The notes under the pieces are model-generated. The model did not search any database. It was not told the origin of the DNA and saw only the letters and a program-made list of their open reading frames with translations. From Eledone cirrhosa (taxonomy: Eukaryota), in contig OZ024749.1 in the NCBI GenBank assembly GCA_964016885.1, positions 6,944,001 through 7,008,000 on the forward strand: a stretch of DNA of 64,000 nt, written 5' to 3'. How positions within the stretch are numbered: position 1 is the stretch's first letter; every line of letters starts with the position of its first letter. A program made the position numbers and the translations under genes. Positions 173 through 38,406 of this stretch are shown piece by piece.

Positions 173-469
173 TAATCTGAGTTTTTCGAATATTAATAAT
201 AACATTCGATTCGTTTGCAATTATGCAACAGTCACTGTGTATTTTTGAAAATAGCATATATTTTCACTAGCTCTGACAGTTTGGGAGGAGAACAGTGAGC
301 TGTACTGATGAAGGGTGATACCCAGAAACATTAGTGTCTGCAGTTCTGTTCGCATGCCAACATAAGAGCAAATATGAAGTGTTCATTCTACTGACATGGC
401 TATAAAATTTAGGCTTGTTTGCAAAATTGCAAACGAATCGAATGATATTAATATTCGAAAAATTCAGAT

Positions 470-498: not shown

Positions 499-505
<7 letters not shown>

Positions 506-725
506 ATTAAAAAAATAATGAATAAAACAATGAAACAGTTCCTTATATTAAACAAAAAAAGTTCATTATTTAACGATCGTTTCTAGGACATATATGTGTT
601 AGAATTGGCATAATGCCAATTCTAACACATATATGTCCTAGAAACGATCGTTAAATAATGAACTTTTTTTGTTTAATATAAGGAACTGTTTCATTGTTTT
701 ATTCATTATTTTTTTAATACTTTAT
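499..725. repeat. Perfect palindrome, ~113 bp arms, 1-nt spacer at 612
   Basis: Arms compared by eye: ataaagtatt...gaattggcat A atgccaattc...aatactttat. Confidence 0.95.
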
Positions 726-1206
726 CTTGACTCTGTATTCCGTTTATCTTTCACCGAAAGTGATTTTGAATGCATCTCTTCTTTCCATGATATCCGGATT
801 ACATTGAGTTCTTCATACGGATTGGACACTACCGTAAACTCTTGGTAGATTTATCTACATATATATATATATATATATAAATAGAGAGAGAGAGAGATCT
901 ATAATTTGTTGTGCTCAATTGAACATAGATTTTATTGTTTTAGCCTTGAGTGTATATTTCATTAGTCACACCTTCAACTTGCATTTCATTAGATTATATA
1001 CATACGCACATACACAAAAATATACATATATATTATATATATAATATACATAACATATATATTAAATATATATTATTCATATAACATATATATCAAATAT
1101 ATATAACATATATATTAAATATATATATTATATAGTATATATATATAACATATATATTAAATACATATAACACACATACACATATATACATATATATATA
1201 TATATA

Positions 1207-1440
1207 AATAGGAAAACGTATGACCCCGACGGCAGAGCTCAAGCCGTTTCGACGGCTATTTCTGGACTAAATTAGAATTTTTCATTAAAATTCTAATTTA
1301 ATCCAGAAATAGCCGTCGAAACGGCTTGAGCTCTGCCGTCGGGGTCATACTTTTTCCTATTACCCACTCTACTACCCTAAGTATTGAGTACTCTGGTGCG
1401 TTATGGTACATCTGGTTCCTTACCACAACTCCTTCGTTAT
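1207..1440 (+). mobile_element. Short fold-back element (palindrome 1207-1361 plus unique tail) in (TA)n
   Basis: Near-perfect palindrome centred ~1284; second copy in opposite orientation at 38211-38406. Confidence 0.85.
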
Positions 1441-17999: not shown

Positions 18000-18004
<5 letters not shown>

Positions 18005-18081
18005 AATGTAGAAATGGCTTCTGATGATTTGCTCTGAATGAAACAGTTCTAGTTCTGTAGAAGCCATTTCTATATTAAATT
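18000..18081 (+). ncRNA. Putative hammerhead-like motif with ~22-bp stem I
   Basis: aatttaatgtagaaatggctt-CTGATGA-tttgctctgaat-GAAACAG ttctagtt CTGTA-gaagccatttctatattaaatt; register is 1 nt off canonical. Confidence 0.6.
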
Positions 18082-18158
18082 CAATGTTTACACTCTACTA
18101 ATGTATTGAGTACCTTACTTACTGTAGTTACCCCCAATTGAACCTAGGACCCTAGCTT

Positions 18159-20116: not shown

Positions 20117-20572
20117 ATCATCATCATCATCATCATCATCATCACCGTTTTACAGCCATTCTTCCATGCTAACATGGGTTAGACGGGTTGTCCTGTTGTG
20201 GGCAGTGTCTGGTTGGCTGACCTTGTCTTGCTCATACAGGAACTGATTCTGGCTTGATTTCTACAGCTGGATGCTCTTCCTAACACCAACCTCATTTACA
20301 GTGAGTGCTAGGTGCTTTTTTATCCATGGCGCCTACACGTCCACTTTACAGTGTGGCCTGGGTGCTTTTATTTTTTTGCTGTGGCACCTCCACGACCACT
20401 TTGGAGTGGAATGATAGGGACCCCAGCCCCTATCATCTCATTTCTACAGCTGAGTAAACTGGAGCAATGTGAAATAAAGTGTCTTGCTCAAGGAAACAAC
20501 ACATCACCTGGTCCGAGAATTGAACTCACAACCGTTCGATTGCAAGCCGAATGCTCTAACCACTAAGCCATG
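20117..20572 (-). mobile_element. SINE family A with longer RTE-type tail
   Basis: Head at 20440-20572, tail like 13000-13240, (CAT)n on plus strand. Confidence 0.88.
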
Positions 20573-38210: not shown

Positions 38211-38211
<1 letters not shown>

Positions 38212-38406
38212 AAACGAAGGAGGTGTGGTAAGGAACTAGATGGACCATAATGCACCAGAGTACTCAATACTTAGGGTAATAGAGTGGGTAATAGGAAAAA
38301 GTTTAACCCCGATGGCAGACCTCAAGCTGTTTTGACGGCTATTTTTAGACTGAAATAGCCGTCGAAACGGCTTGAGCTCTGCTGTCGGGGTTAAACGTTT
38401 TCCTAT
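38211..38406 (-). mobile_element. Second copy of the fold-back element at 1207-1440
   Basis: Same tail and arms, shorter apex. Confidence 0.85.

Follow-up and report, generated by a model that had tools for sequence, protein, structure and literature searches.

The two hairpins at positions 1208–1440 and 38211–38406 of the analysed window, a 64-kb stretch of a 3.0-Gb genome at G000:C9:6944001-7008000, are, judged by their sequence, almost certainly 5′-truncated insertions of a Hydra-clade Penelope-like retroelement (PLE), whose protein would join a reverse transcriptase (RT) to a C-terminal GIY-YIG endonuclease (EN). Their palindromic form is probably the product of two separately primed cDNAs, each run to the capped 5′ end of the RNA and joined head to head within a (TA)n target.

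The hairpin as part of a Penelope-like element

Positions 1207–1361 form an inverted repeat, 94% perfect, followed by a unique tail that carries GTATTGAGTAC at 1381 and ends in (TA)n. With the T of TAAGTATTGAGTAC (window position 1378) taken as position 0 of the element, the inverted arm (1208–1282, minus strand) spans element positions −18 to −92, and its outer end, ccTAT, is joined to (TA)n; the direct arm (1287–1440, plus strand) spans −91 to +62, and its end, cgTTAT, passes into (TA)n. Between the arms lies an untemplated junction, CATT (1283–1286), and the direct and inverted arms are likely to be the first and second cDNA, respectively. Within the right arm, GAAAC (1318) precedes the stem GGC ttgagctct GCC, followed by GTC (1338–1340) and GGGG. 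These form part of the 3′ half of a type I hammerhead (1307–1344, plus strand), composed of the 3′ strand of stem II, GAAA, stem III, GTC and the 3′ strand of stem I; this copy lacks the core strand TTGANAA. An earlier reading of the same DNA from its letters (the sequence-only reading) had described stem III with its GTC site, the mirrored left arm and the unique tail running into (TA)n, all of which are borne out, as is a second copy with the same arms and a shorter apex. This copy lies on the minus strand at 38211–38406, with its inverted arm at 38352–38406 and a direct arm at 38211–38351 that starts exactly at −78.

Collecting copies by their tail sequence, as had been proposed, gave 11,735 exact genome matches to a 29-nt tail word against none to the reversed control, an abundance that is not attributable to chance. 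The first 90 exact matches along contig C1, otherwise unselected, were mapped and constitute the sample used below. The 30 closest copies have a common 3′ end and a variable 5′ side. Bounded by the two fixed ends of the insertions, the tail is 80 nt long (1361–1440, plus strand). It is collinear with an RT-EN ORF upstream, and ~95 nt of further sequence downstream leads to the start of this ORF, MRKHNIDFSTKNIP (L041, L042, L048, L049 and L052), the tail being 5′ UTR in full elements. Continuity with the RT-EN ORF in both directions identifies the palindrome as part of the PLE pLTR and 5′ UTR. Palindromic and intact forms are thus one element, as the sequence-only reading had supposed; the tail, whose motif it had suggested might be a 3′ recognition signal, is internal 5′-UTR sequence and not a genuine 3′ end.

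Contained in locus L033 (G000:C4:114523200-114533000) are an inverted copy, a 5′ pLTR, the ORF, a 3′ pLTR and a tail. This is the layout of an EN+ PLE, with pLTR, partial tandem, inverted 5′-truncated copy and tail, and an inverted arm is likewise present in 69 of the 90 sampled copies. In L033 the 5′ pLTR is fused directly to the ORF, without the ~188 nt of tail and 5′ UTR of other copies, a single occurrence that reflects either a deletion or a template jump.

Two natural open segments represent the protein, and no single intact full ORF was recovered beside them. P0001 (582 aa) contains the RT, with GLYRDDG, and P0002 (408 aa) the thumb and the EN, with AYIG; they overlap at 80% identity, and through this overlap RT and GIY-YIG endonuclease fall in one ORF, as in EN+ PLEs. 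The domain calls rest on motifs, because Pfam at its cut-offs gave no match for P0001, P0002 or five homologs; precomputed Pfam labels of homologs are PF26215 and PF28514. Marks of the Hydra clade in P0001 are RLRWR (RWR for RWK) and HSDKT (DKT in place of DKG), and those in P0002 are CNCPDRSIC (the CxCX5C linker), CNLCSEE and LLNKK...CKH (CxxC and CxH around E and N); no CCHH was seen by eye. Among 1,164 relatives found, 120 were listed at 36–51% identity, and the 12 that were aligned keep RWK or RWR, DKT and the other Hydra marks where covered. Also in keeping with the Hydra clade are the preference for (TA)n (78 of 90 ends) and a length below ~3 kb (the unit in L033 is ~2.9 kb). The Hydra assignment is motif-based.

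Fixed ends, apex and the likely RNA start

In the 90-copy sample, the tail end of the direct arm passes into (TA)n at +58 to +66 in 78 copies. An inverted arm was found by BLAST in 69, and its outer end lies exactly at −18 in 52 of these. Both fixed ends (+62 and −18) finish in TAT, matching the (TA)n target, and the 80 nt between them make up the tail; from these junctions we infer priming at TAT. Either end can use either site, since locus L020 carries a tail on both arms and the direct side ends at the short site at many loci; L187 is listed as a symmetric variant like L020. In L036, L081/L082 and L015, two copies face each other tail to tail across a short (TA)n, and new copies have landed in the TA flank of older ones, across families too (L186 and L216).

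In 16 of the 69 copies the direct arm stops at least 20 nt short of the upstream limit of the inverted arm, and in some of these copies the arms do not overlap (L126, L077 and L148). Such longer inverted arms cannot arise by copying the first cDNA; later deletions could mimic asymmetric arms. Both arms bear the same subfamily tag in 22 of 30 copies, as scored by a crude script that cannot tell one RNA from two.

At the apex, 56 of 90 direct arms start between −85 and −68. Templated sequence ends most often at A(−78), in 18 of 115 scored arms, with a spread from −71 to −83, and junctions differ from copy to copy. Located 29–34 nt upstream of −78 in all 42 long copies examined (31 nt in 32 of them) is a TATTTA[T/A]-like box, and the sequence at the start site is TTAGTC in 25 long copies and TCAGTC or TCAGTA in 5; box and start site were judged against the consensus and spacing of TATA and Inr elements. 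Owing to this box, 31 nt upstream, and to a non-templated G at −79, the apex is likely to mark the capped start of the element RNA. In the first window copy −78 falls at 1300 (plus strand), the putative main transcription start of the family (tt/tc-AGTC). Both arms of that copy extend 13–14 nt beyond it, which suggests that its source was a minor start or the 3′ pLTR.

At −79 the template carries T or C, and a purine at this position occurs in 2,078 matches, of which the first 100 comprise 90 G and 10 A (88 and 12 in another listing). In the control, a purine at −80, there are 743 matches, and the first 100 comprise 21 G and 79 A (Fisher p = 3e-24 against −79). The G is not a subfamily variant, an explanation that was rejected because none of 90 G rows runs on into the upstream template. 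It is present on 11 of 18 arms that stop at −78, against 5 of 26 that stop at −77, −79 or −80. In most G rows the G may alternatively belong to the opposite arm as its final base; the unambiguous rows number, by eye, ~25 G against 8 A in 100 (p = 0.005) and, by script, 12 G against 1 A among 44 arms. Of 40 loci retrieved, 38 came from the top of the −79 purine listing and two were chosen from the other listing; in these loci G is found on 40 of 44 arms, and 26 of these 40 G arms have no tail after them. Three insertions carry G on both arms (L289, L325 and L326, the last two chosen because they were apparently doubly capped). A pile-up of apexes at the hammerhead cleavage site was rejected, as only one of 90 direct arms starts there, and no upstream exon common to the junctions was apparent.

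Hammerhead fold, bulged stem and sister families

The core strand is kept in only 9 of the 90 copies. The core of the family is TTGANAA, with U3-A8, and occurs in long copies that have the full hammerhead fold; the sequence-only reading had predicted CTGANGA, which is not seen in the first 100 of 2,213 matches to the core pattern CCCYTGANRAGTTCGGCTATTT (86 U3-A8, 14 C3/A8 and no C3-G8). Position N7, which is free in the hammerhead numbering, is occupied by all four bases among the same 100 matches. The canonical C3-G8 hammerhead of Hydra-clade pLTRs is thus not the form found among these matches in this family; the 499 and 18000 families, described below, have C3-G8 hammerheads. As in type I hammerheads, three helices surround a conserved core with G10.1–C11.1, a free N7 and an NUH cleavage site (GUC). 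Across 42 copies, 95% of cells are paired in this three-helix fold, against 32–50% for slid partners, and the hammerhead of L200 folds with a z-score of −3.0. Two pairs show two-sided change; covariation does not rise above that of shuffles, 149 of 500 reaching as high a value, and the copies are ~90% identical. Rfam gave no hammerhead among 150 matches listed of 196, matching the hairpins to miRNA models instead. A subfamily with a C3/A8 core (CTGAGAAG or CTGAAAAG; L029, L203 and L209), which accounts for the 14 of 100 core matches, has spread despite its broken 3–8 pair.

In the predicted fold, the putative start would lie within loop II, and the TATA-like box would form the 5′ strand of stem II. 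With the start in this loop, only half a ribozyme would be present at the RNA 5′ end, and the mirrored half ribozyme seen in the sequence-only reading may be a hammerhead cut in half by the RNA start.

GTATTGAGT pairs with ACTCTAC to form a stem with a UU bulge (ACTC-TAC/GTA-TT-GAGT; 1366–1389, plus strand), which includes the motif singled out by the sequence-only reading and begins 6 nt 3′ of the −18 end. With at most one mismatch, GTATTGAGTAC occurs at three window sites only (1381 plus, 18103 plus and 38270 minus), so the motif reported after the 18000 hammerhead is indeed present at 18103. The similar motif reported at 802 for the 499 family does not hold as a word, ATTGAGT alone (803) having 28 window matches, but it does hold as the 3′ strand of a stem at 730. 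The stem pattern ACTC-nnn...n'n'n'-TTGAGT has three window sites (730, 1366 and 18092), one per family, and at 730 the bases have changed but still pair, across a long loop. In each family the stem starts ~5–8 nt 3′ of the inverted-arm end. Folding of the tail stem is not better than that of shuffles (z-scores of 0.38, 0.96 and −1.44), and the minimum free energy structures of the 18000 family do not show it; support for the stem is therefore its position and its compensatory sequence across the three families. As the motif is conserved as a structure, a role in recognition is plausible and, by analogy with the stem-loop of an anole element, the stem is a candidate protein-binding site that would set both starts.

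The 499 family, very young and with copies 99–100% identical, is represented by one window copy (499–858, plus strand; inverted arm 499–611, fixed end 725, stem ACTC-TGTA/TACA-TT-GAGT 730–809). In its long copies the hammerhead is canonical (CTGAAGA) and the inverted end is fixed, three of five long copies are preceded on the same strand by a Hydra-type EN, and by these sequence features the family is a Hydra-type PLE; inspection by eye of the region 30 nt upstream of its apparent pile-up showed no TATA box. Another stub of this family, with a small palindrome, lies at 1535–1625, and its direct arm stops within hammerhead stem II, at an internal acatatat leading into (TA)n, a third TA-like priming point.

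The 18000 family is older, with one window copy (18000–18158, plus strand; core CTGATGA at 18021, GAAAC at 18040, GTA at 18057, stem 18092–18111). It has a canonical core, a Hydra-style hammerhead and the two-end layout of the 1207 family. Hydra-like pieces occur at some of its loci, inverted, distant or weak, and none could be linked to it as an ORF. Positioned 30 nt upstream of its own pile-up is TATAAATA (at most one mismatch), in 20 of 25 scored of 30 loci, and GGCTTTCC is a candidate start site; this pile-up comprises few arms (6 of 25) and is biased by the query. The genome holds more Hydra-type families, as shown by another, diverged hairpin family at L281:3850-4300 whose arms (ggggctcgacggctgatctcc) are similar and whose tail is related. 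The window also contains, at 288–345 (plus strand), a type I hammerhead that is canonical and intact (CTGATGA at 305, GG-CC stem II, GAAAC and GTC); it lies in a different repeat, which is also present in L024 and is probably another PLE family. A tRNA-like Rfam match at 20513–20570 (minus strand; 33.8 bits, above the gathering threshold) is probably the head of a SINE.

Origin of the palindrome and comparison with known systems

In the mechanism we favour, Pol II would start at −78 within the 5′ pLTR, in hammerhead loop II, giving an RNA that begins with half a ribozyme. The GIY-YIG domain would cut both (TA)n strands, and each ATA-3′ end would prime at an internal UAU, at +62 or −18, the two UAU sites flanking the UU-bulged stem, which is probably bound by an element protein. 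Priming in the 5′ pLTR copy would yield run-off cDNAs of ~140 and ~60 nt, ending in C opposite the cap, and end joining of the two would create the palindrome with its 80-nt tail; priming in the 3′ pLTR copy would yield the rarer long insertions. We are evenly divided over a stricter version, in which double priming on sense, capped RNA by a single RNP is obligate, the stem sets the two UAU sites, every short palindrome records the transcription start, and the promoter lies inside the ribozyme. Were this so, the promoter would disarm the 5′ hammerhead, so that the 3′ repeat alone would retain an active U3-A8 ribozyme.

Asymmetric arms, together with the constancy of the −18 junction and the presence of G on arms lacking a tail, favour two primers, one per target strand. 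The sequence-only reading had looked for a fold-back point instead. In a fold-back, one cDNA would stall at hammerhead stem II, snap back and copy itself, or it would prime itself on an antisense template, the published reading for rotifer Penelopes (PMC3846280). Such a fold-back would suit an apex located in a structured region, the inner hairpin of loop II, and arms of one copy that usually share a subfamily tag (22/30, by the crude script). It leaves unexplained the fixed −18 TAT|(TA)n end (52/69), the inverted arms with sequence absent from the direct arm (16/69), the G on tail-less arms and on both arms, and the TATA spacing, and antisense self-priming does not predict a G at the sense start. 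We consider fold-back unlikely and prefer to interpret the mirror as two cDNAs, both terminating where the RNA begins.

Two cDNAs might also stop at −78 because of an RT pause, RNA processing or a splice site, the G then reflecting terminal-transferase activity of the RT or an artefact of the junction. Although ctaat-ttag-tccag resembles the 3′ splice-site consensus, and many G rows are ambiguous, the G is specific to −79 (11/18 against 5/26, and 21:79 at the control −80), the junctions have no apparent common upstream exon, and the TATA spacing holds in two families; we regard this alternative as quite improbable. Least credible, and largely refuted, is the view that the hairpin is a mobile unit in its own right, a non-autonomous element of MITE or retrozyme-like type. 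The copies are indeed short, abundant, palindromic and TA-flanked, and some junctions recur. Against this, the 80-nt unique tail on one end means that the ends are not terminal inverted repeats, the apex varies between copies, the RT-EN ORF continues on both sides, and no tandem monomers were seen among 90 copies; target-site duplications are unreadable inside (TA)n. The MITE identity, which the sequence-only reading had set against its own view, was rejected on the non-terminal-inverted-repeat ends, copy-specific apexes and ORF continuity.

The element class and layout are already known and the class is ordinary, an inverted copy and a tail being standard PLE features (PMC8557442). With the Hydra clade, including Hydra-1_Obim, the 1207 family shares one ORF running from RT to GIY-YIG EN, RWK-like and DKT motifs, the CxCX5C linker, CxxC/CxH around E and N, the (TA)n target, the inverted 5′-truncated copy and a pLTR hammerhead (PMC8557442). 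The Hydra hammerheads in File S2 of that paper are all CTGANGA, whereas the 1207 family has TTGANAA and a long stem II, and the hammerhead of Hydra-1_Obim (Octopus bimaculoides) differs from it; the tail is 80 nt, against the usual 30–40. GTATTGAGTAC has no match in the supplement text of PMC8557442, where line breaks could hide matches. U3-A8 in place of C3-G8 is shared with the minimal hammerheads of the Schistosoma PLE Cercyon, as are motif pairs on opposite strands, 100–700 bp apart; the Cercyon hammerheads have no helix III, whereas in the 1207 family helix III is 5 bp long and helix II, which includes an inner hairpin, 9 bp (PMC4209133).

The Poseidon element of Anolis carolinensis (PAc) resembles the 1207 family in having two internal RT starts that bound the tail, cutting and extension of both target strands, an AT-rich target, a stem-loop at the initiation region and no need for ribozyme cleavage, uncleaved RNA being used in vitro; its starts lie in the ORF, without target homology, whereas those of the 1207 family lie in the 5′ UTR, both with a TAT that matches (TA)n (PMC11167929). 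Adineta vaga Penelopes have similar head-to-head inverted pLTRs and an optional tail (PMC3846280), and TATA/Inr-like motifs or an internal promoter in the pLTR are a likeness to both these and the Penelope of D. virilis (PMC2377424). The A. vaga palindromes were read as self-priming on an antisense template (PMC3846280), whereas the 1207-family data point to a sense, capped template and two primers.

How PLE head-to-head repeats and tails form, on a sense or an antisense template, is described as open in PMC8557442, PMC3846280 and PMC11167929, and the two-cDNA reading would address how Penelope elements form inverted ends. We found no report of a cap G or of double priming at PLE inverted junctions in the open-access literature searched. 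The thousands of junctions here provide a read-out in the form of a cap-like G, present on one arm or on both, at a position whose distance from the TATA-like box fits a start site. This favours a sense, capped template and two primers. The family also offers a naturally occurring U3-A8 hammerhead whose predicted fold includes a complete helix III, together with a candidate RNA recognition stem common to three families. In L1, the second primer lands at variable sites and gives a non-overlapping inversion, whereas in the 1207 family it would be placed at one fixed site, and the overlapping cDNAs would give a palindrome. The likeness to LINE-1 twin priming lies in a second primer on the other strand, which gives the inversion, and in the extra G, which derives from the cap at L1 5′ junctions and marks a cDNA that has reached it (PMC11702581).
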